The notes beneath the pieces were generated by a model that was not told the origin of the DNA, made no database searches, and saw nothing but the letters and a program-made list of their open reading frames with translations. From Candidatus Woesebacteria bacterium (GTDB taxonomy: Bacteria > Patescibacteriota > Microgenomatia > UBA8517): a stretch of DNA of 64,000 nt. Positions 2,811 to 40,054 of the stretch are shown here, piece by piece. The stretch lies in NCBI GenBank assembly GCA_963716475.1, contig OY970314.1:628790-692789 (forward strand), read 5' to 3'. How positions within the stretch are numbered: the stretch's first letter is position 1; each line of letters begins with the position of its first letter. A program made the translations under genes and the position numbers.

Positions 2811-3394
2811 TCAATTTTTTTATACTTCAACAAAGTATCCTCAAATTTACCGTTTCTTACAACTCCACCCGGAAGCAAGCCATAATCAACAAAACCCATT
2901 TTCTCATATAAATTTCTGGCAATTTCATTGGTGGAGAAAACTTCTAAGGTTATAAGTTTTAACCCCGATAATTCTTTTACGGCTTCTTTAATAATCAGAT
3001 CTATCAAAATTTTCCCTATGCCGTCTCCCCTAAAATTTTTTGCTATTGAAATAGCTAAAACTCCGATGTGTTTTTCGGTTTTGTCCATCATGTGAACTTC
3101 GCTTGCACCAACAAGTTCATCGTTATGAAAAACCAGAAGGTGGACAGCCTTTTTGTTTAAAATTGCCTCCAGCCGGCTCTCAAGATATTTCTTTTCACTT
3201 TCCGGTGTTTCTTGCTCACCCTGATACCTAATAAATGTTTTTTCATTTGAGAGCTCATTTATGAAGTTAAGCATTTTTTTCAAATCGCCCGCTTCCGGAT
3301 AACGGATTAAAATCTCTTTCCCGGTATTTGTTTTACCTTGATATATAACTTTCATACGCTTATCGTCTGGGACTATATTAAAACTTTTTACCAT
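2807..3394 (-). CDS. GNAT family N-acetyltransferase
   Basis: acetyl-CoA binding motif 'RGDGIGKILIDLIIKEA', 195 aa, 4-nt overlap with downstream gene. Confidence 0.7.
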   Translation of the reverse strand: MVKSFNIVPDDKRMKVIYQGKTNTGKEILIRYPEAGDLKKMLNFINELSNEKTFIRYQGEQETPESEKKYLESRLEAILNKKAVHLLVFHNDELVGASEVHMMDKTEKHIGVLAISIAKNFRGDGIGKILIDLIIKEAVKELSGLKLITLEVFSTNEIARNLYEKMGFVDYGLLPGGVVRNGKFEDTLLKYKKIE

Positions 3395-3588
3395 GAATTG
3401 AAACTTGCGGGGGGCATATTGCAGTATCTACGCAATTTAATTTATTTTTTTACAACAAAATTAATAACATGATAATGCTTTTTATTCCAGTGGCCCCTGA
3501 GCCTTTATTCATTCCAGCTGTATTCTACAACATTACAATGTAACCCGGGTTCTCTTGACTTTTTCCGATAAGAAACCAATACTAAGGT

Positions 3589-3927
3589 ATGAAATTAATA
3601 GCCAGACTGGCAATTAACGTTTTTGCCCTTTTTGTAGTTGAATACCTGGTACCGGGATTTCATTTGGCCGGCATCTGGACAGCGGTTGTGGCGGCTGTTG
3701 TCATCGGAGTTGTTAATACTTTCATCCGCCCGATTGTTCAGCTTATCGCTCTTCCGATTTCAATACTGACATTCGGTATAGCGGCCTTTCTAATCAACGT
3801 TCTACTTCTTTGGGGAATATCAAAATTTGTTCCGGGATTTACGATTGACAGTTTTACAACAGCCCTTATTGCCTCTATTCTTCTTTCACTCGTCTCCTGG
3901 TTTATGCATAAGCTCGCGAGGGAGTAA
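3589..3927 (+). CDS. phage-holin-4-like (YvlD/PF04020-type) small membrane protein
   Basis: 112 aa, 3-4 TM segments; 'VNTFIRPIVQLIALPISILTFG' matches family consensus by eye. Confidence 0.6.
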   Translation: MKLIARLAINVFALFVVEYLVPGFHLAGIWTAVVAAVVIGVVNTFIRPIVQLIALPISILTFGIAAFLINVLLLWGISKFVPGFTIDSFTTALIASILLSLVSWFMHKLARE

Positions 3928-3986
3928 TCCGTTACCCCACATAATTTTTTAAGGTTTATTTCAGAAAATAATAATATTATTCGGGA

Positions 3987-4322
3987 ATGACAGGTTTAAT
4001 AAAAAAGAGTCTGAATAATCCGGAAGATACTCAGACACCCGAAAAGCTGAAGTCTGAGGTTGTTGTGGTGGATGGCGTTAAGATTCAGCGGGTTACCGTA
4101 GCGCCGGGGTGGCATTGGTCAGAACATTTAAAACCGGTCGTCGGAGGCGACAGCTGTCAGCTGGACCACCTTCTTTACATGCTTTCGGGTAATCTCAGGG
4201 TCAAGATGGAAGACGGAAGTATTGAAGAATTCGGTCCCGGAGATGTAGGAAGAATTCCTCCCGGACACGACGGCTGGAATATCGGGAGTGACGATTTGGT
4301 TTGGCTTGAAATACCGCACTAA
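3987..4322 (+). CDS. cupin-domain protein
   Basis: 111 aa, His-containing cupin motif 'GWHWSEH...', beta-rich. Confidence 0.5.
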   Translation: MTGLIKKSLNNPEDTQTPEKLKSEVVVVDGVKIQRVTVAPGWHWSEHLKPVVGGDSCQLDHLLYMLSGNLRVKMEDGSIEEFGPGDVGRIPPGHDGWNIGSDDLVWLEIPH

Positions 4323-4558
4323 TTGGGGTTTATAGCCGGCTTTTCCAGATTGTGAAGCATTTTGACGGCCTCGCTGACTCTGGATTTTAGTTCAATCTCG
4401 ACTTCATTTTTGAGAGCATCTTTGGTGATTTTTTCAAACACTTTTTTTGTCAAAGGGTCCTCACACGACAGGAAATCATCATAAAGCTTCAATGCGGTAC
4501 TTTGCGCCTCCCAAACCACGGGGTCAAGGTGACTATAAAGTATAAACTCCTTTGCCAT
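4319..4558 (-). CDS. hypothetical protein
   Basis: 79 aa ORF, immediately upstream of mscL on same strand. Confidence 0.35.
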   Translation of the reverse strand: MAKEFILYSHLDPVVWEAQSTALKLYDDFLSCEDPLTKKVFEKITKDALKNEVEIELKSRVSEAVKMLHNLEKPAINPN

Positions 4559-4561
4559 ATC

Positions 4562-4969
4562 TTACTTCCGTTCCAAAATTGAGGTGCAAAACGGGCACCT
4601 TCTTGCGTCAAGAGGAATAATACTCAGGCATTCGGGGCATTTTTTTGTTGTCGGATCAATCGGCTTTTGCTTCTTTGTTAAGGAAATCAGCTTATTCATC
4701 GGAAGCATAACCAGAAAATAAATAACGAAGGCAATAATAAGAAAAGAAATAAGAGCGTTTAAGAAATCTCCTACCAAAAACTGACTGTGATTAATTGTAA
4801 AACTTAATGTCGAAAAATCGGGCTTTCCACCGATTGCGGCAATAATGGGGGTAATTATATCTTTAACCAGCGCTGTAACAACCGTTCCGAAAGCAACACC
4901 GATGACAACACCAACCGCGAGGTCAACCACATTCCCCTTCAAAATGAATTCCTTAAATCCTTTTAACAT
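4562..4969 (-). CDS. mscL: large-conductance mechanosensitive channel MscL with C-terminal zinc-ribbon extension
   Basis: 'LKGFKEFILKGNVVDLAVGVVIGVAFGTVV' canonical MscL N-terminus/TM1; C-terminal 'CPECLS...CPFC'. Confidence 0.8.
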   Translation of the reverse strand: MLKGFKEFILKGNVVDLAVGVVIGVAFGTVVTALVKDIITPIIAAIGGKPDFSTLSFTINHSQFLVGDFLNALISFLIIAFVIYFLVMLPMNKLISLTKKQKPIDPTTKKCPECLSIIPLDARRCPFCTSILERK

Positions 4970-9060: not shown

Positions 9061-9095
9061 TAATCAGGAACGAAATTCTGAAGAACCAGGGTTAA
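9061..9095 (+). pseudogene. relic 3' end of a paralogue of gene 8045..8515 (..KEKDQKFLIRNEILKNQG*)
   Basis: 35-bp direct repeat of 8481..8515 (2 mismatches), in-frame C-terminal peptide preserved, stop upstream. Confidence 0.5.
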
Positions 9096-9493
9096 AACGG
9101 AATGTCTTTCTTTATTGTATCGTGATGGGTAAATTCATCACCAAAATGTCTGTAGTTACACCATTGGCAGTTTTCAGTCTCGGGAGGTGTTGGGCCGGCA
9201 AGAAGTATGTCAATTTTCTTTGCAAACTTTAAAAATCCGGTATCATCTACCGGAACCTCGAGCCAAATTGGAGGAAATGTTAAATTAGCATTGGCATTTT
9301 CAAAATTTACCTGGTCTGGATAAAAAATCAAAAGCCCGAGTCTTGTTATTTTAATGGAATCACCACTTGCCGGATTTTCTAAAGCATACTTATAAGCATT
9401 AAGCTGTGTGCCATATTTATCAATTTTTTCAACATTTGCCTGACTTATTTTAAGATCAACTAAAAGGTGTGAACCATCTCCAAGCTTAACCAA
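9092..9493 (-). pseudogene. PD-(D/E)xK (RecB/Cas4-like) nuclease C-terminal fragment
   Basis: TTG start only; 'GDGSHLLVDLK' (D..D-x-K), 'QLNAYKY' (QxxxY motif), 'CQWCNYRHF'; frame closed 16 codons upstream. Confidence 0.35.
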
Positions 9494-10035
9494 AAGGTAC
9501 CTATTTACCGCTTGTCGCAGAGAAGATAGTTGAATACCGTACTAAAGAAGAGCAGATTCCAAAAACAGCAGAAGACATACAAATTATTGAATCAATTTAT
9601 AACCATTACAAAACCAATCCTTTTGGGTTTGAAAAATGCGCAGCCGAAGTTGTTAAACTTATGGATAAAAATTTTATTTCTTACGACCTAACGAGACCGT
9701 GGTTGGACGGTGGAAGAGACGCGATCGGAAAATACTGCATAGGATCTGAGGAAAATGGAATCAATGTTGACTATGCTATTGAGGCAAAATGCTACAAACT
9801 ATCGGTTGCAGTCGGAGTTAGGGGTACATCCAGATTAATTTCAAGATTAAAATACCGTCAATTCGGGATATTTGTAACAACCTCGTTTGTGCACAAACAA
9901 GCGTATAAAGAAATTAAAGAGGACGGTCACCCGGTACTGATTATTTCATCCCAAGATATTGTCAATATCCTAAAAAGGAATGGGTTCTCTACATTAAATC
10001 AAGTAAGTGAATGGATAAATTCTTTTGAAAAATGA
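9490..10035 (+). pseudogene. Mrr-cat (type IV restriction endonuclease catalytic domain) 5'-truncated fragment
   Basis: open frame from 9490 without start codon; 'FEKCAAEVVKLM', 'DGGRD', 'EAKCY', 'FVTTSF' match Mrr_cat; first ATG (9661) lies inside the domain. Confidence 0.5.
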
Positions 10036-10047
10036 GAAATAGTAGTT

Positions 10048-11871
10048 TCATTTTCTCTTTAAAAAGCCGAACTCCGGCTGAGTTGGTGTACCGACTAAAA
10101 GTGCCCTATCTAAAAATTTATTAAACACTTCACAGCTTGTCTCAGGCAAAAGAGCACACGCGTAACAGGCTGACATATTTAGCGATTCAAAACCCTGACC
10201 GCTGCTCTCGATACATAATGGGTCGTTTGCGCACCACCCTGATGTCTCAGCCATAGATTCCAAGACAGAGGCAAACCTTTCAGGATTAGCTTGTCTTACA
10301 AGTCCGCCTAAAGTGCCATCGGCGTCACCTTCAGCTGTATAAATTAACACACCTTGCATTTTGTTCTCATCTCCAGAGGAATCACAATATATTCGTTCGC
10401 GCAATGAGGCACCAGAATATCCCGATTCGAAACTTAATTGCCTAATTAGTAAGTGGCTGAAAGTATGAAGTAAAACGTATTTTGCTGTAACGGGTTTAAA
10501 ATTTATCTTACGTCTCTTACAGGAAATTTCGTAATTTTTGTTCATCTGTTCAATTCTCTTGATTACAAATTTGTTTTCAGCCCACGATTTTATTTTCTTA
10601 GAATCCAATGCAATAAATATTCCTTCACCCCGAACTTCTACAGCCGGCTTCCAAGTTGCGGGGTGGTTTGGTCTGTCTGTTAATGAGACTAATTCGGAAA
10701 CGTCATGTTCCTCGCCTTCTATAAGTTCTGTATCAGTTTCTTGAGGTCTGAGTCTAGTAAATCCTACGAGAGCCCTTATTTCCCTTAAAGAGCGTACAAG
10801 GAAAATATTTTCGATGCCATAATGAGCATAATCCTCACTCGTTTTTGCCGACACGACGTCAAAATCATATTTATTACTAGATGATGTGTCAAATTTTCCA
10901 TGAAATGCCTGGTATTCATCAAAACGATAATCTTCCTCAGTTTGAGTACCGGAGGATTCTAATAATTCACTCATCTGATTAACACATTTTTTAACTTCAT
11001 CAAAACTTCGGCCAATCTGTTTTGCTATCTCCTCTAAAAATTTATTTTTTATTGTTTGGTCATTTTCTAAAATACCCTCTGCGGTTGTAAGGGCTCGCCA
11101 ATAATCGGTTTCTTGTATGCTTTCAAATAAAGTATCTGTATACGGTGGAATCGTTATTGAGCTTGCAATTCGCGGAAAATAAACGTTACTACCTCCACGT
11201 TGGACGGTAACAATTCTTTCTCCGCATTTCTCTGTATTATTTTCTTTAGACCACGGCATGGCACCCCTGCAGGTATCAGTGAAAATATCGGGGTCGAAGG
11301 CTCCTTGCATTGAACGCGGTTTCGCATCACACTGCATGCATCTTATTTTGGAACCAGAAAGCCCTGCGCCAGCAAGACTTGTGTCGTACTTCAGTGTCGG
11401 ATCCGGACTGCAACCTTCTCCGCGGTGTACCCACCAAACCCAAGGGAAATCGTCAAGGTGACCTTTTCTGCAAGCCACCAGAAAGCTCATCGGAACCAAT
11501 CCTTTTCTGCATATATTACAACGCGGTTGTGTAAGAAATTTTCGTGTATCGTTTATTGTCCATTTCTCGTAAGTTTTTAATAAACGGCACTTGGGACAAA
11601 AAAGCCACCGCGGAAACCTACGGTATGGGAGTCCCTTTGGAAATTCTTCAGATGAAGGAGGCTGACGAAAATATTTTACATTCAGTTGTTTCTGTAATCG
11701 CTCGTCCCGAAGGATGTCTTTATTTCCAGTATTAGGCCAGGAGTCAATCCCCATAGCTATAAAGGTGCCTTGTTCCAAATTGATAAGCGCGCCTGGACCA
11801 AAAGTGGTAATCATTTGTCCCCGCCTAATTTTTGGGCGGGAATCATTTTTATATTTAAAATAATTAATCAT
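10048..11871 (-). CDS. drmB: DUF1998-domain protein, DrmB-like (DISARM)
   Basis: 607 aa; Cys clusters 'FCPKCR','CNICRKG...ACRKGHLDDFPW'; C-terminal 'LLHTFSHLLIRQ...GDADGTLGG...CYACALLPETSC' DUF1998 signature; 8-nt overlap with upstream helicase. Confidence 0.7.
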   Translation of the reverse strand: MINYFKYKNDSRPKIRRGQMITTFGPGALINLEQGTFIAMGIDSWPNTGNKDILRDERLQKQLNVKYFRQPPSSEEFPKGLPYRRFPRWLFCPKCRLLKTYEKWTINDTRKFLTQPRCNICRKGLVPMSFLVACRKGHLDDFPWVWWVHRGEGCSPDPTLKYDTSLAGAGLSGSKIRCMQCDAKPRSMQGAFDPDIFTDTCRGAMPWSKENNTEKCGERIVTVQRGGSNVYFPRIASSITIPPYTDTLFESIQETDYWRALTTAEGILENDQTIKNKFLEEIAKQIGRSFDEVKKCVNQMSELLESSGTQTEEDYRFDEYQAFHGKFDTSSSNKYDFDVVSAKTSEDYAHYGIENIFLVRSLREIRALVGFTRLRPQETDTELIEGEEHDVSELVSLTDRPNHPATWKPAVEVRGEGIFIALDSKKIKSWAENKFVIKRIEQMNKNYEISCKRRKINFKPVTAKYVLLHTFSHLLIRQLSFESGYSGASLRERIYCDSSGDENKMQGVLIYTAEGDADGTLGGLVRQANPERFASVLESMAETSGWCANDPLCIESSGQGFESLNMSACYACALLPETSCEVFNKFLDRALLVGTPTQPEFGFLKRK

Positions 11872-14800
11872 CTTTTATATCAATATTACATTCGGCATCT
11901 ACGTTTCTCATGGAGGTTGGGAATACCCAAAGACCTTTACCAGAATCCCCGGCCCTTCGTGCTATTGGGTTTCCTGCTTTGTCGTTTTTATAAACAACTT
12001 TTCCTTCATTTTCCTTTATAAAATTTTCCCATTGACTGACCAACATCTCGAATTCCTCGAGTGTCGCATCAGCCTCTGTACTGTCTACATCCTTCACTCT
12101 TTGAATAATATAATTCCGTAATTCTGTTATTTTTGGTAATTCGGGCTTGAATAAGGCGGCACCACCTTCCTCTTCAAAATTTAAACCCAACCCGTGACGA
12201 AACATTGCCACAATAACCGCACTTAACGCACGTGCCCTAGCGGGGGCAGAGAAGGGGGTAACACTTGAAGGCTCAACACTTCTGTAGAATGTTTCGTGGT
12301 ATGTTCGAAAACGTTCGTAATGGGCACGGTCTCTAGTCCTTGCAGAATTGTAAAGGGTAATTACTAATCCGGGAAAACGTCTACCTATTCGGCTTGATAC
12401 CTGAATATACTCCGAGGTAAGTTTTGGCTGTCCGCGAATTACCATTAAATCAAGCCTATCTATATCAACACCCACGGACAACATGTTTGTGGCGGCAAGT
12501 ACGTCAATGGCGTTTCTATCAGGGAACGTTACGGATAACTGTTCGAGAATTTCAGGTATTTCTTCGGCACGCTTTCTACTTGTTAATTCTTTTGGTACAG
12601 CAATGTCACGCATAAAGCCACCATACCTCTGTTTTAATACATTCGCATATAAGGGGATATCGTCAGTCAAAAGGGATATAAACCCTCCTAGTTCACGGAT
12701 ACTGTTGAAGTAGTTTACGATTGTCCAATATTTATCTTTTACTTCATCATCTTCCTCAATTGTAAATACAGAATGTAGTAACTCAGCGGTGAGCCGAACG
12801 GCAGCCGTTGTTTGTGTTTTGCCCGAAGGCATAATTCCGAGATACAACCTTCCCAGTTTAATATTAAGCGGCACTTCCTTTGAAAAAAATGAATCGTTAA
12901 TATCAACTCCGGGGGATGGAAATTGCCTTGTCTCTCTATCAAAAAGATTCTTACACTGGTCTGCAGCGCGTCTTATTGTTGCAGTAGATGCTACAATTTT
13001 TGGCCGTACTCCTTTTCTTGAACAAAGAAAGTCAATCACAGTCTCATAAAGTCCAACCATAGTTCCCAATGCCCCTGAAATTAAGTGCAATTCGTCCTGA
13101 ATGATAAGTTCCGGGGGCAGGTTGGGATTATCGTTGTCGGATGCAAATACTCTTGATATACCTTTTTGTAGAGGCATTTGGGCAAACTTATCGACAGTCC
13201 CAAATAACAAAGTGGAGGGATCTCTGTAAATTTCTTCATCAACAATAAGTACTGGAAGTCTTTGATGAAAGGCACAAGTCTTTTCAAGACAAAAAAGATT
13301 GGCTTGTTTAGATTTACTTTTATATCCGCATACTCTATTTCCGTTCGCTTGCTCTATAACTGTTTTAGTTCCACACCAGGGGCACGAAAGTATAGGCGAT
13401 GGATTTTTGTCAGTTTCACCAAAAATAAATTCCTGAAAACCTTTCTCTGCCATCTCCAAACTATTAGGAGTTGAATCTATTCCGACCCAAAGTCCGACTG
13501 ATATCTCCTCGCTTCCCAACTTTCCATTACTGTCTTGTCTGATTTTTTCCATAGCACATATTAGAGTGCATGCTCTCTGAAATTGTTGCGCGGTGAGCAA
13601 ACGCAATGTATATCTCATTATTACGGCTGTACCTCCGGATTCGTTTGGATATTTAAGTCGTCGATAAAAAATTGTGAATGATGAAAGACCAAGATACGCC
13701 TCAGTTTTACCTCCACCCGTGGGAAACCAAATTAAATCAACGATCTCTCTATCCTTGGATTTGTGTTCGGTAATGCCTTTTAATGAAAGCAGGAGGAATG
13801 CTAATTGAAAAGGTCTCCAGCTACGTCTTCCAGTCTTCTCAGATAGATAATCTGGCCATTCTATAGTGCCTTCTCCGGGAGATCTCTTTTGCTTTTGGAG
13901 TTCTGAATGGAGCGATTGCATCAACATGGCCTTATTGGCCAATTGGAAGGATTCCATCACAAGATTGTCAGCGTCAAGCAACCGAACCCCTTCAATCATT
14001 CTAGAGCAAGATTCCTCACACAGCGCAATGTGTTTGTCGACAGTATTAGAGAAATTAGTCGGCAAATTGGTGTTTTCTCTAAGACTGCTTATCCATTGTT
14101 TGTATAAATTACAAAAGATATTAAGTTTGTCTATTATTTCCCCCTTCTTAAGGGTTCCGGTTCCCGAAAGCTCCCTCATGCTAAGTATTAAAGGGTCCAA
14201 ACCCGGTACATCAAAATCGGTTTTTGGAACTTCGAATGCTGGAATAGTCTCTGTATAAACGGAGGATGAATTAATAGCGCCCTCATCACGTGTCCAATTT
14301 GCAGAGCACCCATGTCCGACTGCATAGGTTTTTCTATTTCTATACAAAAGAGCTAAAGACAGTTCTTCCTCATCGTGTTTAAACAATGGAACTGAGGAGT
14401 ACTCTGCAAATATTTCCTTTTGATCACTCGCTGAAGTGACAATCATCGAAACATTAAAAAATACATGTTCCTCGTCCATTCCAACGTGGCCGACCTGATT
14501 TGTATTTTTAAGGGCAAGTGTGAAAAGGGTTAAATTACCCTTATCATCATGTCTTCTTTCACACACCAGTTCTAGGCCCTCCGTTACTCTTTGAGATTTA
14601 AAATCAGCTTTAATAGTTAGATCCGCCGTATCTCCAAGACTTTGCCACTCACCCTGGGATTGCCTGACCGCTTTATAGAGTTGGGGAATAAAATCCTTTT
14701 CATTAGATTTTTCAGATATTTGTTTAGGTATCCCGTAATCGACAACCCCGCGAGTAGACAACTTTCCTTCAGTGAACTCAAAATTTTCTTTAAATTCTTC

Positions 14801-15232
14801 CAAGTCTGCAATGGATTCCGGGATTTTATCAACCTCAACATAATGCTCCCCTGTTTCTAATTTTTGATAAGTCGTCCAGTTAACTTTAACTTTTAAGTTA
14901 GGGCTATTTCCCAAACAGTAAAAGCTTATTCCCATTACGCTGGGAAAGAATGAATTAGCAGATCCCTTATCCGAATCTATAATTTCGCCACCCCCTGTTG
15001 TATCAGCATTATCCTGCTCGTTTACATCACTTTCTTCCGCGATATCTCTACGAGATTCGTAAAGATTTGGGAAAATCATCCCAGCGGAGTACCTGGTGAC
15101 GGGATTTTCCGTAATTCTTTCTTTTCCACTTGCCGGGCCGATAAACTCTGAAAAAACACCATCAACGATACGTGAACGTTCGGTTGCGTAACGATTTTCT
15201 TTTTCATCCATATTCATTGTTTCATTTAACAA
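11864..15232 (-). CDS. drmA: DEAD/DEAH-box SF2 helicase with ~480-aa N-terminal domain, DrmA-like (DISARM)
   Basis: 1122 aa; motif I 'FPTGGGKTEAY', motif II 'IIQDELHLI', motif III 'STATI', motif VI 'QVSSRIGRR'; immediately upstream of DUF1998 gene. Confidence 0.7.
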   Translation of the reverse strand: MLNETMNMDEKENRYATERSRIVDGVFSEFIGPASGKERITENPVTRYSAGMIFPNLYESRRDIAEESDVNEQDNADTTGGGEIIDSDKGSANSFFPSVMGISFYCLGNSPNLKVKVNWTTYQKLETGEHYVEVDKIPESIADLEEFKENFEFTEGKLSTRGVVDYGIPKQISEKSNEKDFIPQLYKAVRQSQGEWQSLGDTADLTIKADFKSQRVTEGLELVCERRHDDKGNLTLFTLALKNTNQVGHVGMDEEHVFFNVSMIVTSASDQKEIFAEYSSVPLFKHDEEELSLALLYRNRKTYAVGHGCSANWTRDEGAINSSSVYTETIPAFEVPKTDFDVPGLDPLILSMRELSGTGTLKKGEIIDKLNIFCNLYKQWISSLRENTNLPTNFSNTVDKHIALCEESCSRMIEGVRLLDADNLVMESFQLANKAMLMQSLHSELQKQKRSPGEGTIEWPDYLSEKTGRRSWRPFQLAFLLLSLKGITEHKSKDREIVDLIWFPTGGGKTEAYLGLSSFTIFYRRLKYPNESGGTAVIMRYTLRLLTAQQFQRACTLICAMEKIRQDSNGKLGSEEISVGLWVGIDSTPNSLEMAEKGFQEFIFGETDKNPSPILSCPWCGTKTVIEQANGNRVCGYKSKSKQANLFCLEKTCAFHQRLPVLIVDEEIYRDPSTLLFGTVDKFAQMPLQKGISRVFASDNDNPNLPPELIIQDELHLISGALGTMVGLYETVIDFLCSRKGVRPKIVASTATIRRAADQCKNLFDRETRQFPSPGVDINDSFFSKEVPLNIKLGRLYLGIMPSGKTQTTAAVRLTAELLHSVFTIEEDDEVKDKYWTIVNYFNSIRELGGFISLLTDDIPLYANVLKQRYGGFMRDIAVPKELTSRKRAEEIPEILEQLSVTFPDRNAIDVLAATNMLSVGVDIDRLDLMVIRGQPKLTSEYIQVSSRIGRRFPGLVITLYNSARTRDRAHYERFRTYHETFYRSVEPSSVTPFSAPARARALSAVIVAMFRHGLGLNFEEEGGAALFKPELPKITELRNYIIQRVKDVDSTEADATLEEFEMLVSQWENFIKENEGKVVYKNDKAGNPIARRAGDSGKGLWVFPTSMRNVDAECNIDIKDD

Positions 15233-16955
15233 AACTGTTGAGTCTATTCTGATACTCAGTTTTTAATTTTTTATCCATAAAAACATATAACTTGTCCTTA
15301 GCCCTCGTCATCGCAACATAATTCGCAGATTCAGAAAACCTTCCAGAAAAAGAATCAACGTCGATATACACAATAATATTATTTTCGAGCCCTTTGAACA
15401 TTTGTGCTGAGGCATACAAAACTTTATCTTTCGGCGGGTTCGAAATGTTTTCCTCATTTGCCTCAGTTACAAAGCGTGGAACCTTCACCCCTGATGTGTA
15501 CAGTGACATTGAACCAGTATTCCTGCTAGTAAGTAAGGTTATAGAAGACGGGGGTACTTCTTCCACGGTAACCAATTTGTTTATTAACTCAACAACCTTC
15601 AGTGCCATATCTTCATCTCCGTTGCATAGATTAAATTCAACTTTGGGGCCCTCAACTCTTGGTTTGCCTGCTGGGAAACCTGAAACAATCGAGGCTTGGG
15701 TCGCTATCTGCAAAGTGTTTCTGACATTTAGGTCAAGTCTATATTCTGGCGCTCCTATACTTTTTAGATAAGTGTAAGATTCGCTACTAAAGCGGTTAAA
15801 AAGTCTTGCTTGTCCGCCGGGATCTAAGAAAATAGCCCAGTTTCCTTCTTTTAGACCATGTTTTAATACGGAGTCTAGAGCAAGTAGGTAATTTTCACTC
15901 AAAAGGTCCTGTGCTTCGTCAATAATCAACCAATCAAATTTTTCCTGGACTGTTTTCTCAGCAGCGTTCATGAATACTGATGGCAGTATTTCGTTATAAA
16001 TCTCATCGGAGGTCTTTCCCAAACTTCTTTTGTCTAGTTCCTTTTCGAACCCAGCTTTTTTAATAACCCCCAAAAAATATCTGTTTATAGAGTTGACCTG
16101 CAGATATGAACTGTCGAGATCGACCGACGAAATCTCATTTCGCAAACAAACCCCTAACAGTTTGTTAAAACATAAGAGAAGGGTTTTTTGCTTGTTAAAA
16201 AATAATCTTCTTGTCTTCTCGACAGCTAATAATGTTTTGCCGGTTCCAGCAGCCCCTGTGAACAATGTTCTTGGGTTTCCCTCCATCTGATCTAATGCCC
16301 TATATTGTTCCTTAGTAAAACTGATTATTTGGTCTTCAGCCCTTACGATATCGCTCCATAAGCGTGTACCTGATTCAAAATCACCTCTTAAATAATCAAC
16401 AATATTAGATTTGGGGATCGGTATCTGCCTTGAAGCCAGATGCGTTTTCCTTTTCCAATAATCAGATAGTCTTTCAACATACTTACTTATAGGACTCGAT
16501 AAGCCATGTACATCGTAGACTATTTCCTTATCCCATTCAGGAGATTCTTCATTAAACTCTATATCTGGAAAAAGAACCCCGTATCCAAAAATGTACCCAT
16601 GATTTTGCCCAAATTTCGATTCTAGGTCACTTTTTAGTGAATACATACCCGAAGAAGCTTGTGCAAAAGGACCTTCCACCTTTTTGTTTTCCTGTCCATA
16701 GCGGTCTTCAAAAATCCATATACCGTCTTTACGGGAAACCCGGCCACCCTTAACTTCCAGGGAAAGTATTAATCCTTTCCCAATCAGAACAAAATCGATT
16801 TCTCCCTGCCTTTTTTGTAGATGTCTGGATAGACCTAAAGAATGTAGACATGTAAATTCTGTAAGATCATCCAGATTATTTAACAATGTAAAAATTTTCC
16901 TCTCGGCATTACTTTTAACATCGGGGTTGATGTAGGACGGAATCATTTTTGCCAT
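15222..16955 (-). CDS. NERD-domain nuclease fused to UvrD/PcrA-like SF1 helicase
   Basis: 577 aa; N-term 'GEIDFVLIGKGLILSLEVKGG' (NERD); 'FTGAAGTGKTLLAV' (Walker A), 'LIIDEAQDLL', C-term 'YVAMTRAKDKLYV' (motif VI). Confidence 0.7.
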   Translation of the reverse strand: MAKMIPSYINPDVKSNAERKIFTLLNNLDDLTEFTCLHSLGLSRHLQKRQGEIDFVLIGKGLILSLEVKGGRVSRKDGIWIFEDRYGQENKKVEGPFAQASSGMYSLKSDLESKFGQNHGYIFGYGVLFPDIEFNEESPEWDKEIVYDVHGLSSPISKYVERLSDYWKRKTHLASRQIPIPKSNIVDYLRGDFESGTRLWSDIVRAEDQIISFTKEQYRALDQMEGNPRTLFTGAAGTGKTLLAVEKTRRLFFNKQKTLLLCFNKLLGVCLRNEISSVDLDSSYLQVNSINRYFLGVIKKAGFEKELDKRSLGKTSDEIYNEILPSVFMNAAEKTVQEKFDWLIIDEAQDLLSENYLLALDSVLKHGLKEGNWAIFLDPGGQARLFNRFSSESYTYLKSIGAPEYRLDLNVRNTLQIATQASIVSGFPAGKPRVEGPKVEFNLCNGDEDMALKVVELINKLVTVEEVPPSSITLLTSRNTGSMSLYTSGVKVPRFVTEANEENISNPPKDKVLYASAQMFKGLENNIIVYIDVDSFSGRFSESANYVAMTRAKDKLYVFMDKKLKTEYQNRLNSFVK

Positions 16956-16957
16956 TA

Positions 16958-19609
16958 TTAGATATTATCAGTTGCCATTAGTTTATTGATTACATCGAAT
17001 GGCACCATTACTTCCTCATCAGATATCTTAGAAACTCTTGCTATCCGGACTTGGGAAGACATTTCGTCAAGTTTATCACGCAATACAGGGTCGTCGATTA
17101 TGCTTTCCGGGGATATGTAGGATTGGGTTATTTTTTTGGCTAAATAACGGCCAATCTTGATTCGTAGAGCATGTATCTTTCTTGTAGCATCCTTCACTTC
17201 CCTTAAATGTGTGTTCAATTCTTTGTTATTTGTCATTCTCGCAATTTTATCAATCGGAGTGTAGTTGTTTTCAGTAGGGCCGATTGTCCCACCCGCAAGC
17301 CAGTTGTTAATTGTTGCCGGATGTCTTTCCACGCCTGCCCTGTCCAGATATACTTTAAGCTGGTCCTGATTCAAATTATTCTCATTGCAGTATGTGATTA
17401 AAGCCGTTCTCCACAACTCTGACATTTTAATCAGGTTAACTATTTCCGGTTTGTGTTCATAAAACTCTACAAGTTCATCGAAAACGGTACCTTTTGCGCT
17501 TAAAAACGCAATTTCATCTCCTTCCAATAATTCACTAATGGTTTTGGTGACAATCTTTTCATTTTTTAAATCCAGTACCCTTATGTTCGTGCCAGGTTGA
17601 AAAAATGAATGTCTGTTGTCAGAAAACAAAACTAGGCGTGCTTTGAATAATTCCGAACGGCCACCGTAGGTATTGGTCGCAGATTTTATCAATGCCGTAG
17701 ACAAAACGCTGTCAATATCAAAAACCTCTTCGTTATCAATTCCATCAGTCTTCTGCTGCGGTAAAGCCTCAAGATTGTTATTTAATACTTGATCAGGAAC
17801 TTTTAAGATACCGGAGCGGTAGGTAAGGCTAGTATATTGACTTAATAAACGCCTTGTCATGTCGAAGGACCGCTCGAGCTCCTGTTTTTGTAACGGGTAC
17901 ACCAAAAGGTAGTTCTTTCCTACACGGGGTTCCAGCATCAGTAAATTCTTTGCCGACGGTTTAAATGTCCATATTATGATATCGTAGCCACCAACAGCTT
18001 CCGTGATGCTATCTGTATAACCCACGCTTGGTACTAACCATCCGTATTCGGCTTTTTCTATTTCTGGGGTAACTAAATTTCTGATAGCATCAATTGTTTG
18101 TGGATATTTTGTGAGGATACACACCCTCCTGTCTTTATTTTCAACAACCAACGCCTCTGCCTGAACGGACTTGGCATAATGTTCCTTAAATTTAGTTACT
18201 GAGTCATCCAAAAGCGAGACGAGTTCTGCCGCGTCGTGGTCAAAATTTTCCGGTACTGCACTCAACCTGAGTGTTTCTATACTATCCCGCAGCAATTTAA
18301 TATCCTCTTCAAGCGTTTTTCCACCAATACCTTGTGCCATCTCGTCAAGCTTGGACACGGAAAGCGGGGATTGGAATATTTTATTCGCTACCCCCGCAGC
18401 ACGAACAGAAAAAAGCAGCAAATCATTATTGTTGTACTCGTTACTCTTGGAAAACATTCCGTGAAGGAGCATTTGAATCTTTTTGTGTGATTCTAGGGAA
18501 ATACCCTGCGGATAGGGTATTTCAACAAAGACATCTTCATAGGCTGCAAGTTTGGGCACTACATTGTTATGCTTGTTAACTAACCCGGAATATTCACTGT
18601 TAGCCGACCCGGTATTGCTTTGACCGGGATTCGTAAATCCGGTCAATCCCTTAAAATCGTTAACATCCCAAATCCATATTTTAAACCCCAGACCCTTTTC
18701 AAGCTTTTCTATCAAGTCCAGCTGACTGTAAGACTGTAGCCAGTAAATATCCTCAATACTGTATTGATTCCTGATTGAAGCTGCCAAACTTATATCACGC
18801 AATGCTTTTCCCTGGGCATCAACAAATAACGTTTTAACCAGGGGTTCTGATTCCAGAACATCGTCCGCTATCGATAAACCCGAAACAAAATAAAACATGT
18901 ATGCCATTTTCCTAACGTCCCTGCTAAGACTTATCCGGTTCCCTTTCGTACATTTCATTGACGGAAATATCTCAAAGAAAGGCTTTCCGTTTAATTCGAT
19001 ATTTTTTAAGATGTTGATTAAATGCGGTCTTTCACTCGATACCAAAAAAGCAGGGTAGCCGGATAGCCCAACCTGCTGACCCTGAAATCCTAAAAGCAAT
19101 CGTAGTACATCCTTTGCGTCTTTTTTCGTTTTATCCGGCTCGTAGGCGTCGGGTATAGTTTTAATGCCGGAATACTTCGATACCGAAGAGAAAAAGTGCA
19201 GCGGTATTGACTCATACGTGTTGTATTTATCGCTATAGCCAAGCCGGAATTTACCTATTTTAGTTGCCGGGTCGGTCGAAACACCTCCGTATTTGGCTAT
19301 CCTACCGTCAAACTCAACAAGTTCGCCGACTTTAAAATCGTTTAGTCTAAGTTTTGAATTCTTAATAATTGCTCCTTTGTAAGCAACAAGCCCCATTATT
19401 ATTAGAAGGTAAACATCAAGCAGGTCATCACCGGGGTGATAAATAGCAATACTATTCTTTGTCTCATCCAATACGTTATTGTGAACTATTAACGCGTTAA
19501 GCATCTCATAGCCTCCGATAGACAAAGGGCTGCCGGCGAGAGAAAGTCGTAATGCCCGAAGCTCCGAGATATCGTCTTTTATGTAATTAATGATTCTGTC
19601 GTTGAACAT
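16958..19609 (-). CDS. large protein of unknown function (candidate DrmE-like defense component)
   Basis: 883 aa, no recognisable catalytic motif except a relaxed P-loop-like 'AQGIGGKT'; translationally coupled between MTase and NERD-helicase. Confidence 0.5.
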   Translation of the reverse strand: MFNDRIINYIKDDISELRALRLSLAGSPLSIGGYEMLNALIVHNNVLDETKNSIAIYHPGDDLLDVYLLIIMGLVAYKGAIIKNSKLRLNDFKVGELVEFDGRIAKYGGVSTDPATKIGKFRLGYSDKYNTYESIPLHFFSSVSKYSGIKTIPDAYEPDKTKKDAKDVLRLLLGFQGQQVGLSGYPAFLVSSERPHLINILKNIELNGKPFFEIFPSMKCTKGNRISLSRDVRKMAYMFYFVSGLSIADDVLESEPLVKTLFVDAQGKALRDISLAASIRNQYSIEDIYWLQSYSQLDLIEKLEKGLGFKIWIWDVNDFKGLTGFTNPGQSNTGSANSEYSGLVNKHNNVVPKLAAYEDVFVEIPYPQGISLESHKKIQMLLHGMFSKSNEYNNNDLLLFSVRAAGVANKIFQSPLSVSKLDEMAQGIGGKTLEEDIKLLRDSIETLRLSAVPENFDHDAAELVSLLDDSVTKFKEHYAKSVQAEALVVENKDRRVCILTKYPQTIDAIRNLVTPEIEKAEYGWLVPSVGYTDSITEAVGGYDIIIWTFKPSAKNLLMLEPRVGKNYLLVYPLQKQELERSFDMTRRLLSQYTSLTYRSGILKVPDQVLNNNLEALPQQKTDGIDNEEVFDIDSVLSTALIKSATNTYGGRSELFKARLVLFSDNRHSFFQPGTNIRVLDLKNEKIVTKTISELLEGDEIAFLSAKGTVFDELVEFYEHKPEIVNLIKMSELWRTALITYCNENNLNQDQLKVYLDRAGVERHPATINNWLAGGTIGPTENNYTPIDKIARMTNNKELNTHLREVKDATRKIHALRIKIGRYLAKKITQSYISPESIIDDPVLRDKLDEMSSQVRIARVSKISDEEVMVPFDVINKLMATDNI

Positions 19610-20770
19610 TTACTCTTTCAAATGAAGATTTATAAATTTATTAACAGATTTTGCTACACCAACAGCGGCTTTGTACGGAACGCCGTTCCCAATTGCCTTG
19701 AACATTTCTGACAAAGTCATCGTATCCGGCAGGACAAATTGTCTGGGTAATGACTGCAGGGAAAGAGCCTCAGCCACTGACAGTCTCCGGGCTTCATAGG
19801 GATGAAGGTGAACCTCGTTATTACCATATGCAACGGTGGGAGAATATTTCCAGCGGTGCAATCTTTTAAATGATTTTTTCGAAACGTCGCCTTCCTTTGT
19901 ATCCCTAAAACGAAGAAGCGCTTGCCGGGGTTTAAAATAATGTTTGGAATTTGGATGAGTTAGTACCCGGTTTTTATTAAACCAGTACTCTACGGTAGTA
20001 TCCTCCGGAATACTTTTCGGTCTTTTTTTCATCGACCCATCATAAAGGTGCTCAACTTTTTTGTATTTACTAAATATTTCCTCCCGTGGGTACTTAACAA
20101 AGTCATTCCAGGGAAATGCCTTCGAATTAAGAAGATGTCCGTCTTTCGGGTCGAGGATTTTATTAGGTATCAGTTTATTATCAAATCCGATAAGAATAAT
20201 CCTGTCCCTGTCTTGTGGTACACCATATTCAATGGCATTAATAAGCCTCTCGGTTATAACATATCCTTCTTTTTGCAATTTTTTCTTTAATTCTTCATAA
20301 AAAAGTCTGTGACTTTTGGTTCTCCACATACCCTTTACGTTCTCAAACAAAAAGAAGTCCGGTTTCTGCTGGCTAATTAAAGTGGTGTATATTGCCGAGA
20401 GTTTTCCATGTTTTCCACATCGGCCTTTATTTTTACCCGCTACGGAAAAATCAGGGCAAGGGGGTCCACCAATAAATCCGACGAGTGAACCTTTTTCCCT
20501 GGCATCCTTAACAAAACCTGATAGTCTTTTCTTCCACAACCCTTTTGTAAGCTCCTTCATGTCCCCTTCGTGGTACCCGTATCTGGGAGCGGGAAGCTTC
20601 ATTTTGACGCGGGCAGTTTTATACGCACCAAGAAAAGAAGAGTTCAGCTCGTTAACAAAAGCTATATCGAAACCGCTGCTTTCAAAACCTAAATCTAAAA
20701 AACCTACACCGGCGAAAAAGGAGAATATTAAATTTTTACTTTTTTCCCCAGAGGCTAAAACTTGTATCAT
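19610..20770 (-). CDS. dcm: DNA (cytosine-5)-methyltransferase (DrmMII-like)
   Basis: motif I 'FFAGVGFLDLGF', motif IV 'GGPPCPDFS', motif VI 'FLFENVKGM', motif X 'AIGNGVPYKAA'. Confidence 0.85.
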   Translation of the reverse strand: MIQVLASGEKSKNLIFSFFAGVGFLDLGFESSGFDIAFVNELNSSFLGAYKTARVKMKLPAPRYGYHEGDMKELTKGLWKKRLSGFVKDAREKGSLVGFIGGPPCPDFSVAGKNKGRCGKHGKLSAIYTTLISQQKPDFFLFENVKGMWRTKSHRLFYEELKKKLQKEGYVITERLINAIEYGVPQDRDRIILIGFDNKLIPNKILDPKDGHLLNSKAFPWNDFVKYPREEIFSKYKKVEHLYDGSMKKRPKSIPEDTTVEYWFNKNRVLTHPNSKHYFKPRQALLRFRDTKEGDVSKKSFKRLHRWKYSPTVAYGNNEVHLHPYEARRLSVAEALSLQSLPRQFVLPDTMTLSEMFKAIGNGVPYKAAVGVAKSVNKFINLHLKE

Positions 20771-20843
20771 CCTGCCTATATGTTATCACTTTTACTACAT
20801 AATCAGTTAAGATCGGAGGAACGAATTTTGTCACACTCCGGGC

Positions 20844-21248
20844 TTACCCTTGACTTATCAGAAGCCTAAATAACCTGTTAATTGCTCTATCTGGGTTTCG
20901 AACTATGTCATTGCCCCAAAAATTAATAATATGCCAGCCCTCTTTACGAAGCGTTCTTTGAACCAGCCTGTCTCGTTTAATATTATTTCCGATTTTTTTA
21001 ATCCAATATTCAGGGGTGGCATTCTTCTTGGTTAAATAATTTTTACCATGCCAAAATTCTCCGTTGATAAATACGGCGACTTTATATTCAGGAAAGGCTA
21101 TGTCAGGTTTCCCTATAACTGGATAATGTTTCTTAAACTTGCAGCCGATTTTTTCCAGCAATTGAAACATTAGCTTCTCAGGTTTTGTATTTTCTGACCT
21201 AATCCGCGACATGTTATAACTTCTTTGTTCCTTAGTTTTTATATCCAT
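20844..21248 (-). CDS. vsr: very-short-patch-repair endonuclease Vsr
   Basis: 'YNMSRIRSENTKPE...GKPDIAFPEYKVAVFINGEFWHG' canonical Vsr; directly upstream of dcm. Confidence 0.8.
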   Translation of the reverse strand: MDIKTKEQRSYNMSRIRSENTKPEKLMFQLLEKIGCKFKKHYPVIGKPDIAFPEYKVAVFINGEFWHGKNYLTKKNATPEYWIKKIGNNIKRDRLVQRTLRKEGWHIINFWGNDIVRNPDRAINRLFRLLISQG

Positions 21249-21292: not shown

Positions 21293-21712
21293 CTAGTCAA
21301 CCGTTCCCTGCTGTTTTTGAGTCTCGTAATGGCATTTTTCGCCGTTACTTAACCCTACAATCGTCAGCTGTACGAAAAACTGTTTCCAAGTCTTTCCGTT
21401 TGCGAGGAGCACGATCTCACCATTTACCGTCTTAACGCCTTCCCACCTGTCATCGTATTTTTTTACTACCACCGTGTTATCGGGACCGTACTTATTTTTA
21501 TAGACCAAGCTTCTCTCATTTACTCCTTTCTTGTACGTTTCCGTGTCCGGTTCGTAAAGAGCAGTCGCAGACATGTGAACACCTTTAACTGCAAAAAAGT
21601 TTGCAAAAAGGATATTCAGCGGAAAATCGGATAGCTCGGGCCTTCCATCCACTTCAAGTTTATTCGGAATAAAACCGAATCTTTGGAGCGGGTTTGCATT
21701 TGTTTCTATCAT
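21293..21712 (-). CDS. hypothetical protein
   Basis: 139 aa ORF. Confidence 0.4.
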   Translation of the reverse strand: MIETNANPLQRFGFIPNKLEVDGRPELSDFPLNILFANFFAVKGVHMSATALYEPDTETYKKGVNERSLVYKNKYGPDNTVVVKKYDDRWEGVKTVNGEIVLLANGKTWKQFFVQLTIVGLSNGEKCHYETQKQQGTVD

Positions 21713-21910: not shown

Positions 21911-22249
21911 TTATAACACAGGTAGAGTGGGAAAAACTTCTTTTACAAACTTATCTGCAAAAGCTTTCATAATTTTATTCCCATTCATATCGGTGCTGTG
22001 ATATAAAACGGTTTTTGGCCAAAATCGGCGTGTCTTATTCTGAACACACAAATCCGCAAGATATTTCATAACATCATCCCCTAATTTCGTGTGATTGAGG
22101 TGAAAATCAAAATCCATACTTTCAATAAATAAGTCTTCCTTCTGAAGCATTATTTCCGCCACTTTCTCTACCCCTTCAATATTTTTGAGGTTAATCCAGC
22201 CTTCCGGAGCTTGCCTCATGTCATCCAGCCAGATTTTTATTGCAGCCAT
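21911..22249 (-). CDS. hypothetical protein
   Basis: 112 aa ORF. Confidence 0.4.
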   Translation of the reverse strand: MAAIKIWLDDMRQAPEGWINLKNIEGVEKVAEIMLQKEDLFIESMDFDFHLNHTKLGDDVMKYLADLCVQNKTRRFWPKTVLYHSTDMNGNKIMKAFADKFVKEVFPTLPVL

Positions 22250-22298: not shown

Positions 22299-23360
22299 CT
22301 AGTTGTAAAACCAGTCCCAGCCGGGGTTTTCGACAACCTTAATATTGGAACTTTGAAGTTTCAGATTGTTCCCCACTATCCAATAACCTTCGAAATATTT
22401 ATTCATAGTTGTCCCTTCCACCCAGTCTAATGATTGCAGTTTGATATTAATTTTATTTTCGTTTTTCGCGTCGGGTGAGGCTGATATTAGGTAAACCTGG
22501 AGAGTTGTGGCATAACCCTGAATCCACGAATCGAAAGTCTGGGTTTGGCGCATCGGGTCCATCTGGTCATAAGCTTTTCTTAGATCGCGGGCACCGATAT
22601 AAGTATAGAAGGCGTTAACAACCCCGAGAGGGTTTGTGGTGTCGATCTTAATTTTTGCAACTTGCTCATCGGAAAGTCCCAGTATTGAATTTTGAACGGA
22701 AGCGATATCAATAAATTCGGAAAGCCCCGCAACACCCATTGTGTTTACACCTATTACCTCCCCGCATGCATTAACAAGAGGACCTCCGCTCATTCCGGAA
22801 ATTACCGTGGCATCGGTTTTGATATATGAACCCTTGAAAGTATTATCATAAATTGTTCCGGTGTAGGAACCTTTATTGATGATTACTCCCCCTTTAAGTT
22901 CCGATCCAAATGCGTAACCCACAGCATAAACCGGCTCGCCAAAAACCGGATTGGGGGCACTTCCCAATGTTCCAAAATAACCGTAAAAAGGAAGCGGGGT
23001 AAGCTTACGATTTATTTTCAAAACGGCCATATCCTTGGTTTTGTCACCTCGGATGCTTACGGGAGTTTCGATACTACCGTCCGGGAAAACAACTTTAGGG
23101 GTCGCGTCGCCGTCAATTACGTGGAAGTTGGTGAAAATTTCATTTTCCGAAACAGGAAACCCTGACCCTTCTCCCAAACTTCCTTCTATGCGTACTACCT
23201 TCTCGTTCATAGTTTTTTGAATTTCGGCCTGCGAACATTTCAAAAGTTTGGTTCCACCGAAACGTTTTTCCACATTGGAAAGCCGGATGTTGAGATAACC
23301 GATATAGGCGAGAACAGCGGCAATGAGGATAAACTTCAGGAGCTTCATTATGCGTTTCAC
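22299..23360 (-). CDS. secreted trypsin-like (S1) serine protease with C-terminal extra domain
   Basis: N-terminal TM/signal; 'TNFHVIDG' (His), 'DMAVLKI' (Asp), 'GMSGGPLV' (Ser) catalytic triad context. Confidence 0.65.
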   Translation of the reverse strand: MKRIMKLLKFILIAAVLAYIGYLNIRLSNVEKRFGGTKLLKCSQAEIQKTMNEKVVRIEGSLGEGSGFPVSENEIFTNFHVIDGDATPKVVFPDGSIETPVSIRGDKTKDMAVLKINRKLTPLPFYGYFGTLGSAPNPVFGEPVYAVGYAFGSELKGGVIINKGSYTGTIYDNTFKGSYIKTDATVISGMSGGPLVNACGEVIGVNTMGVAGLSEFIDIASVQNSILGLSDEQVAKIKIDTTNPLGVVNAFYTYIGARDLRKAYDQMDPMRQTQTFDSWIQGYATTLQVYLISASPDAKNENKINIKLQSLDWVEGTTMNKYFEGYWIVGNNLKLQSSNIKVVENPGWDWFYN

Positions 23361-39980: not shown

Positions 39981-40054
39981 TGGCTGCGGGACAGGGATTT
40001 GAACCCCGATACCAGCCTCCAGAGGGCCGTGTCCTACCGTTAGACGATCCCGCA
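39981..40054 (-). tRNA. tRNA-Gln (anticodon CUG), CCA encoded
   Basis: minus strand TGCGGGA-tc-GTCtaacggtagGAC-a-CGGCC-cuCUGga-GGCTG-gtat-CGGGGttcaaatCCCTG-TCCCGCA-G-CCA; 7-bp acceptor, TΨC loop TTCAAAT. Confidence 0.8.

Follow-up and report, generated by a model that had tools for sequence, protein, structure and literature searches.

The stretch analyzed here, 64,000 nucleotides of contig OY970314.1 from a Candidatus Woesebacteria assembly (GCA_963716475.1; below called the window), carries six open reading frames (ORFs) at 10048..21248, all on the minus strand, which together form a DISARM-type locus. The ORFs are present at exactly the coordinates given in the original prediction, an earlier reading made from the letters alone, and its domain assignments were all upheld by profile searches using Pfam, NCBI and PADLOC models. 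In order, the cassette comprises vsr, a C5-cytosine methyltransferase (MTase) gene, drmE, the gene for a NERD nuclease domain fused to a superfamily 1 (SF1) helicase (hereafter NERD-helicase), drmA and drmB.

20844..21248, minus strand: vsr, very-short-patch repair endonuclease (PF03852, 1.2e-24; TIGR00632, 119 bits, cutoff 98)
19610..20770, minus strand: C5-cytosine DNA MTase, DrmMII-like (PF00145, 9.4e-50; TIGR00675 dcm, 148 bits)
16958..19609, minus strand: DrmE-family protein, 883 aa (PF24957, 1.7e-14; NF038316 DrmE_fam, 265 bits, cutoff 80)
15222..16955, minus strand: NERD (PD-(D/E)xK nuclease) and SF1 helicase fusion, 577 aa (PF08378, 8e-8; ResIII, SLFN-g3_helicase, AAA_19, UvrD_C_2)
16566-16955: NERD domain of the fusion, ca. 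residues 1-130
15225-16343: helicase core of the fusion, ca. residues 205-577
11864..15232, minus strand: DrmA, short-form DISARM superfamily 2 (SF2) helicase of the YprA type, 1122 aa (NF038325 DISARM_DrmAS equivalog, 981 bits, cutoff 950)
10048..11871, minus strand: DrmB, DUF1998/MZB zinc-binding partner of DrmA, 607 aa (NF038324 DrmB_fam, 497 bits, cutoff 240)

The DrmA/DrmB core was recognised correctly at the outset, as both proteins exceed curated NCBI cutoffs. DrmA is an SF2 helicase of the DISARM clade, and a separate DrmB is encoded right after it. DrmA further matches the PADLOC DrmA profile (6e-233) and the solved Serratia DrmA (PDB 7S9V, 1.2e-156), and its Walker A motif GGGKT (residues 506-510), its DELH motif (713-716) and Met6 are invariant. 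DrmB additionally matches PADLOC DrmB (5e-90) and PF09369 (2.5e-7). The 883-residue protein, previously taken for an unknown, belongs to the DrmE family by PF24957 and NF038316. Against the canonical DISARM_DrmE equivalog NF038323 it reaches 54 bits, which is below the cutoff of 250; judged by these profiles it is a diverged DrmE, predicted to be a degenerate SF2 helicase-like scaffold. Searching the PDB with the DrmE sequence returned no informative relative. With DrmA, DrmB, DrmE and the 5-methylcytosine (m5C) MTase all above curated thresholds, the assignment to DISARM is well founded.

The gene between drmE and drmA encodes a NERD domain fused to an SF1 helicase, as had been proposed, and the fusion is supported by PF08378 on one side and by ResIII, AAA_19 and UvrD_C_2 on the other. 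The nuclease residues E52, D54, E67 and K69 are invariant among 75-118 homologs, as are the ATPase residues G234-G239-K240-T241 (Walker A), D346-E347 (Walker B), R412 and R551. Given these invariant PD-(D/E)xK and SF1 motifs, nuclease and motor both look intact at the sequence level. The best PADLOC profile was RTasNERD-Hel (PDLC03813, 1.1e-52), aligning residues 1-565 to positions 1-516 of the 519-position model. An AlphaFold2 model of the NERD-helicase had a pLDDT of 87. Foldseek comparison of this model placed SLFN11/14, Upf1 and UvrD on top, with Sen1, RecD2 and Dna2 also found; the resemblance is generic for SF1 and does not discriminate between SF1A and SF1B polarity. A sequence search of the PDB yielded no informative relative and only a weak GajB match confined to the C-terminal 55 residues (8JQB, E = 0.005).

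The NERD-helicase is co-inherited with the operon as an integral component, rather than forming a separate adjacent system. Homologs were collected at E <= 1e-10 (4541 sequences), and genomic contexts were sampled at 86, 65, 55, 42, 39 and 38% identity. The order DrmE, NERD-helicase, DrmA, DrmB was found in 7/7 close homolog contexts (86-38% identity; related loci carry L numbers below), including L090, an independent assembly of the same locus that agrees on gene order. Hosts of the sampled contexts include WWE3, Melainabacteria and Verrucomicrobiae. A scan with the DrmA alignment, using one genome per species, returned at least 588 relatives; the best 80 were kept, and 66 of these had adequate flanks. 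The NERD-helicase lies directly beside drmA/drmB in 26 of the 66 species-level loci (ca. 39%), 21 times directly upstream of drmA and five times directly downstream of drmB, and the hosts span at least ten phyla (Proteobacteria, Acidobacteriota, Bacteroidota, Actinomycetota, Chloroflexota, Bacillota, Patescibacteria, Desulfobacterota and others). Starting from the NERD-helicase alignment, a metagenome scan gave more than 460 relatives, of which 80 loci at 63-28% identity were kept. DrmA/DrmB were present in at least 57 of the 62 informative loci anchored on the NERD-helicase, only five informative loci lacked them, and eight further loci with short flanks contained partial Drm fragments. The pairing is kept even on annotated plasmids at 27-28% identity, where the order is NERD-helicase, DrmA, DrmB in Deinococcus and UvrD, DrmA, DrmB, NERD-helicase in Azospirillum. 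PGAP calls the plasmid DrmA merely a 'helicase-related protein', indicating that such systems go unrecognised. Further, pairwise distances of DrmA and NERD-helicase are correlated (Mantel r = 0.69, with 0 of 1000 permutations as high), and the architecture with an upstream NERD-helicase fills deep clades of the DrmA neighbour-joining tree.

The concern that the NERD-helicase might belong to an independent adjacent system is not borne out, considering the conserved synteny and its co-variation with DrmA. A variant of the same idea would have it act as a self-sufficient single-gene defence, similar to Nhi, that is nested in DISARM operons. Single-protein nuclease-helicase defences of this kind exist (Nhi, 10.1101/776245), a small number of homologs lack DrmAB nearby, and the top-scoring PADLOC model stems from another context, that of defence-associated reverse transcriptases (DRT). 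However, DrmA/B are adjacent in more than 90% of informative loci, across at least ten phyla and down to 27% identity, the NERD-helicase co-evolves with DrmA, spacings of 2 and 4 nt with no intergenic terminator place its gene within the operon, and the PADLOC Nhi model matches residues 229-262 only, i.e. the Walker A region and not the full length (3e-6). We therefore regard a nested single-gene defence as quite improbable. As a separate observation, three of the four NERD-helicase matches in IMG/VR viral contigs (L171, L173, L174) carry cassettes of DrmA, DrmB and NERD-helicase; in part, such systems may be carried by mobile elements (prophages, satellites or others), unless the contigs have been wrongly classified.

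The junctions within the cassette, together with a hairpin upstream of it, are listed here.

vsr to MTase: gap of 73 nt
MTase to DrmE: 0 nt, the MTase stop codon abutting the DrmE ATG
DrmE to NERD-helicase: 2 nt
NERD-helicase to DrmA: 4 nt from the Met6 ATG start, or -11 from the upstream TTG start
DrmA to DrmB: -8 nt, overlap sequence ATGATTAA
21740..21760, minus strand: terminator-like hairpin and T-run, a 9-bp stem with 4 GC pairs followed by TTTTTGTT

The originally described packing with gaps or overlaps of 0-11 nt thus holds for four junctions and fails for vsr/MTase. The true DrmA start is probably the ATG at 15217 (Met6), 4 nt past the NERD-helicase stop. Exact spacings hinge on start choice, since an independent gene caller applied to L090 picked later starts for DrmE, DrmA and DrmB; gene calls for L001, L002, L003, L005 and L006, five out of six relatives, show the 8-nt drmA/drmB overlap again. 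The hairpin likely represents the upstream limit of the transcription unit, and no comparable minus-strand terminator was found in the intergenic gaps between the six genes. Matches to a sigma-70-like promoter between 9 and 24.2 kb were fewer than in shuffled sequence (24 versus 34.9 +/- 6.1). The arrangement with MTase and vsr in first place, which had been considered distinctive, was rejected as a defining trait of the variant because both position and strand of the MTase vary freely among relatives.

No gene for DrmC or any other phospholipase D (PLD) protein was detected anywhere in the 64-kb window, as judged by an HxKx4D scan and by phmmer and tblastn searches with the bona fide DrmC of L088, a class 1 DISARM plasmid from Microvirga. 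This DrmC served as control and was detected by the same scan, while the only two loose HxKx4D matches in the window lie at 58-64 kb inside unrelated genes. The reported lack of a PLD-domain gene is therefore confirmed. To say that the NERD-helicase stands in place of DrmC was an overstatement: by the same tests none of the 86 related short-DrmA loci contains DrmC, not even those in clades without a NERD-helicase, and the NERD-helicase is located here between drmE and drmA, not after drmB, which is a different slot from that of DrmC. DrmC is also documented to be dispensable and often missing (PMC9142583; 10.1101/2021.12.28.474362). Its absence is thus neither new nor specifically compensated. 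DrmC is accordingly the member of the DISARM core triplet that is lacking here, and in terms of the PADLOC type II rule (A, B, C, E, MII), judged from profile matches, four of the five components are present, DrmE among them in a diverged form.

These results bear on an alternative explanation of the locus, namely that it is an ordinary class 2 DISARM system minus the dispensable drmC and that the NERD-helicase is a non-essential accessory without a specific mechanistic role. Besides the dispensability and frequent absence of DrmC, this would fit the placement of DrmA within the NCBI DISARM equivalog and the wide variation of genes around DrmAB, which include UvrD-type helicases, TmtA-like giant proteins, Mrr-like nucleases and trypsin-like proteases. 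We consider it improbable nonetheless. The strict conservation of catalytic residues, the retention in deep clades and the co-evolution with DrmA point towards selection for joint function, and as DrmE falls below the canonical DISARM_DrmE equivalog, the whole clade seems to have diverged, which is more than the simple loss of one gene.

On the modification side of the cassette, the MTase matches PADLOC MTase_II (1e-154) and also DrmMII models (down to 1.8e-31), with the generic MTase_II and DruM models scoring higher; an in-operon m5C MTase of the DrmMII kind, as expected for DISARM class 2, is thus present. Vsr adjoins the MTase in relatives L002, L003 and L004. In four DISARM-type loci an N-terminal Vsr domain and a C5-cytosine MTase are combined in single ORFs (L013:5732-7282, L016:5723-7336, L030:5817-7361 and L098:8571-10328), and these fusions tie Vsr to the modification and not to the restriction side. 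Vsr mends T:G mismatches resulting from 5-methylcytosine deamination, as known from Dcm/Vsr biology. We infer that the C5 MTase is the self-marking component and that Vsr is its companion. The presence of Vsr also allows the cassette to be viewed as a DNA-repair module in which YprA helicase repair of the MrfAB type is joined to Vsr mismatch repair: Vsr is a repair enzyme, and relatives of YprA/MrfA act in repair (10.1101/2025.09.15.676423). This appears highly improbable given that DrmA falls into the DISARM equivalog and not with MrfA, that split DrmA/DrmB is a DISARM signature, and that an MTase is present. In addition, relatives of the cassette are found beside integrases or resolvases, plasmid copies lie next to DarT, PIN toxins and transposases, and occurrence is patchy.

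Based on these observations, we interpret the locus as a DISARM class-2-like anti-phage system built on a short DrmA, in which the NERD/SF1 helicase is an integral fifth component and the presumed nuclease effector, and we assign this reading a probability of roughly 0.6. In such a system, the m5C MTase would mark host DNA as self and Vsr would curb the mutagenic cost of 5-methylcytosine. DrmAB would act as an ATP-driven SF2 complex loading on single-stranded ends of unmodified invader DNA. For class 1, DrmAB was shown to be an ATP-dependent complex that loads on 5' single-stranded overhangs of unmodified DNA and requires both ATPase activity and single-stranded DNA binding (PMC9142583; 10.1101/2021.12.28.474362). 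DrmE would be a catalytically dead SF2-like scaffold acting with DrmAB; in class 2, DrmA, DrmB and DrmE are all essential (PMC9142583; 10.1101/2021.12.28.474362). The NERD-helicase would be made in step with DrmA and may associate physically with DrmAB, with its SF1 motor holding the PD-(D/E)xK nuclease on DrmAB-engaged DNA. It would then cut or degrade that DNA, supplying the nuclease activity not provided by DrmC, and the system as a whole would presumably protect its host against phages. Bravo et al. 2022 found that DrmC does not co-purify with DrmAB and proposed recruitment of an unidentified nuclease, calling the source of DISARM DNA degradation 'a mystery' (PMC9142583).

Several observations weigh against the effector interpretation. 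Sister clades possess DrmE, DrmA and DrmB with neither DrmC nor NERD-helicase (L008, L011, L013-16, L030 and L089, the latter an L. plantarum plasmid), which indicates that DrmAB systems can exist without an in-operon nuclease and that the role of the NERD-helicase may be an auxiliary one. In a few cases the family is found apart from DrmAB (L106, L142, L158, L165 and L172), either as solitary copies beside a transposase or metabolic genes or in other company: L158 combines it with a WYL regulator and a dynamin-like GTPase, and in L172 its partner is a large SF2 helicase. Together with the reverse transcriptase-associated label of the best PADLOC profile, they suggest that the module is not exclusive to DISARM. 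No fusion of the NERD-helicase with DrmA, DrmB or DrmE that could serve as a Rosetta stone was found. The N-terminal ca. 227 residues of DrmA do not align with the EVE/trigger-loop region of class 1, so the class 1 activation mechanism may not transfer. Finally, the absence of DrmC applies to the 64-kb window, and a DrmC-like PLD gene may lie elsewhere in the genome.

The nuclease-less systems also fit a different division of labour, in which the NERD-helicase acts before DrmAB. It would sense or process the ends of incoming DNA, resecting or unwinding them in the way of AddAB/RecBCD to leave the single-stranded overhang needed for DrmAB loading, and a replication block by DrmAB/DrmE would constitute the effector step. 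DrmAB binds only single-stranded overhangs of at least 7 nt and could act as a physical obstacle to replication even with no nuclease (PMC9142583). The NERD-helicase gene is located upstream of drmA in most loci, and the modelled fold may be likened to the helicase-nucleases Dna2 and AdnAB, which are among the generic SF1 matches. On the other hand, the position of the gene is not fixed, as it follows drmB in 5 of the 66 species-level loci and in many metagenome loci, and an extra Mrr-type nuclease after drmB in some relatives could be the effector instead. Although computation draws no distinction between such an end-processor and the effector model, we deem the end-processor unlikely, if the strongest of the competing readings, and retain the NERD-helicase as nuclease effector as our preferred interpretation.

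The surroundings of the cassette contain the following further features.

9092-9493, minus strand: PD-(D/E)xK (Cas4-like) fragment, 133 aa (PF12705, 7e-5)
9661-10035, plus strand: Mrr_cat ORF, 124 aa, convergent with drmB (PADLOC mREase_II, 8e-53, model positions 268-388 of 393)
21293-21712: ORF between the hairpin and vsr
21911-22249, minus strand: cREC_REC receiver-domain gene upstream of the cassette (PF20274, 1e-10)
22299-23360, minus strand: trypsin-like serine protease, ca. 1 kb upstream of the cassette (PF13365, 5.5e-24)
39981-40054: tRNA-Gln
46565-49030: Clp ATPase
59295-60608: GltX
62700-63947: non-discriminating aspartyl-tRNA synthetase

The Mrr_cat ORF is a decayed C-terminal remnant of an Mrr-like methyl-directed restriction enzyme of ca. 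390 residues, relatives of which were found at L021:15268-16446, L086:15255-16511, L036:16312-17478 and L085:3-1079. In L021 and L086, intact homologs (48-59% identity) are located ca. 26 nt past the drmB stop on the same strand, which is the DrmC slot of canonical DISARM. A second PD-(D/E)xK nuclease hence seems to be an optional module of the subtype. Homologs of the protease (ca. 33% identity) directly follow drmB in L001 (12038-13324, 3-nt gap) and L002 (15493-16779, 4-nt overlap) and are found near the cassette in L051 from Patescibacteria (3271-4674); the protease could be an accessory confined to certain lineages, or shared ancestry could have placed it there by coincidence. The Cas4-like fragment, beyond the Mrr remnant, has no homolog near related cassettes. 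Both the ORF at 21293-21712 and the receiver-domain gene were rejected as parts of the system since no homologs exist in related loci. GltX, the aspartyl-tRNA synthetase, the Clp ATPase and the tRNA gene provide chromosomal context, and the window, taken from a source contig of 982,852 bp, also contains ABC transporters and many small genes lacking a family match. The nearest relatives of the cassette come from WWE3, Gottesmanbacteria and other Patescibacteria. If the host is a bacterium of the candidate phyla radiation, this 11-kb defence operon would account for more than 1% of its genome.

Carrying the effector interpretation further, DrmA, DrmB and the NERD/SF1 helicase could constitute a distinct, phylum-spanning DISARM class ('class 3'), a dual-motor helicase-nuclease machine like RecBCD/AddAB with DrmE as scaffold and the NERD-helicase as nuclease effector. 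We put this forward tentatively and see it as a genuine possibility that falls short of being probable. If true, it would explain DNA destruction by DISARM without DrmC, and the optional modules, i.e. the Mrr-type nuclease in the DrmC slot and the trypsin-like protease, would make the system a modular effector platform.

DISARM is widespread, and DrmC, the only nuclease annotated for it, can be dispensed with in each of the two classes tested. What appears to be new is the NERD/SF1 helicase as a conserved partner of DrmAB. The subtype is large, crosses phyla and is not recognised by current annotation, and software that makes DrmC a condition of detection will overlook such systems or give them a wrong label. 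A seemingly intact PD-(D/E)xK nuclease and SF1 motor inside the operon offer a specific candidate, open to mutation, that could be either the missing effector or a sensor that processes DNA ends, and the compact six-gene cassette makes the DISARM effector question directly testable.

The idea of an undescribed variant agrees with the openly searchable literature, to which our survey was confined. Among openly searchable full texts, only a 2025 preprint on the YprA family and its CoCoNuT predecessor treat NERD together with DISARM or its components, and neither describes the arrangement. The preprint refers to 'many uncharacterized DISARM-like classes' and places NERD only in the unrelated TALON system, and its text-form supplements do not mention NERD, DrmE or DISARM-like classes (10.1101/2025.09.15.676423).

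The class 2 type system of Bacillus paralicheniformis, as outlined in later accounts of Ofir et al. 2018 (10.1101/2021.12.28.474362; PMC9142583; PMC9252829), consists of DrmE, DrmA, DrmB, DrmC and DrmMII. By that outline, the present locus shares with class 2 the split DrmA/DrmB, a DrmE-family protein and an m5C MTase in one operon, and differs in having no DrmC, a conserved NERD and SF1 helicase between drmE and drmA, and Vsr beside the MTase; its DrmE is also diverged, passing the family model but not the canonical equivalog. With the class 1 system of Serratia sp. SCBI (7S9V/7S9W, PMC9142583) it has in common a homologous DrmA core and DrmB with ATPase motifs kept, whereas no part of the short DrmA aligns with the class 1 N-terminal EVE-like domain and trigger loop. 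Neither DrmD (SNF2) nor DrmMI (N6-adenine MTase), the marks of class 1, was matched among the six genes or scanned neighbours.

A further arrangement was seen in short-DrmA loci of Streptomyces and other actinobacteria (L028:3391-10004; L029, L039, L042, L046 and others), in which two other proteins replace DrmE and the NERD-helicase upstream of drmA/drmB. The first, of ca. 1570-1640 residues, begins with a TmtA-like region and ends in an SF2 helicase; the second is a UvrD-type SF1 helicase of ca. 640 residues without a NERD domain, GajB-like at 1e-34. This looks like another unannotated DrmAB architecture, and its UvrD-type member suggests that an SF1 helicase partner is a general theme for DrmAB.

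In case of PADLOC RTasNERD-Hel, the NERD-helicase matches over its full length with the same two-domain architecture. The partners differ, being DrmA, DrmB and DrmE in this clade; the neighbours in L001-L006 are Drm genes, and no reverse transcriptase domain was found in the genes scanned, which cover ca. 5.0-31.3 kb of the window (the cassette with ca. 5 kb on its downstream and 10 kb on its upstream side). Gabija (GajA/GajB), Hachiman (HamA/HamB) and Nhi resemble the proposed working in concept, as they couple a helicase motor to a nuclease of the PD-(D/E)xK or a related type that degrades invader DNA. Here, there is no GajA or HamA partner, the similarity to GajB and Nhi reflects generic SF1 motifs (for GajB a weak partial PADLOC match at 2.8e-10, with no GajA match), and the setting is that of methylation-based DrmAB.

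The closest parallels lie within the YprA family (10.1101/2025.09.15.676423). TALON likewise associates a YprA-family helicase with a NERD-type PD-(D/E)xK nuclease, but it is rare, largely restricted to Chloroflexota, and comprises an ARMADA-like YprA with TPR-CSD and TBP proteins; no SF1 fusion is described for its NERD, and a DrmB split, DrmE and an m5C MTase are all lacking. The TPR-CSD and TBP partners of TALON and the BrxHII-like and PglX-like partners of ARMADA were not found in the scanned neighbours. ARMADA type II combines a YprA-family helicase operon and an MTase with a second SF1/UvrD helicase carrying an N-terminal nuclease-type domain (ArmD). Its YprA, to which a nuclease is fused, is a Druantia-like single chain, the N-terminus of ArmD is RelE-like and not NERD, and its partners are a BrxHII-like helicase and a PglX-like N6-methyladenine (m6A) MTase where the present system has DrmE and an m5C MTase. 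By analogy of architecture, ARMADA type II is the closest functional analogue, albeit an independent one, and the cassette described here would extend its pattern of a YprA-family SF2 helicase paired with a nuclease-tagged SF1 helicase.

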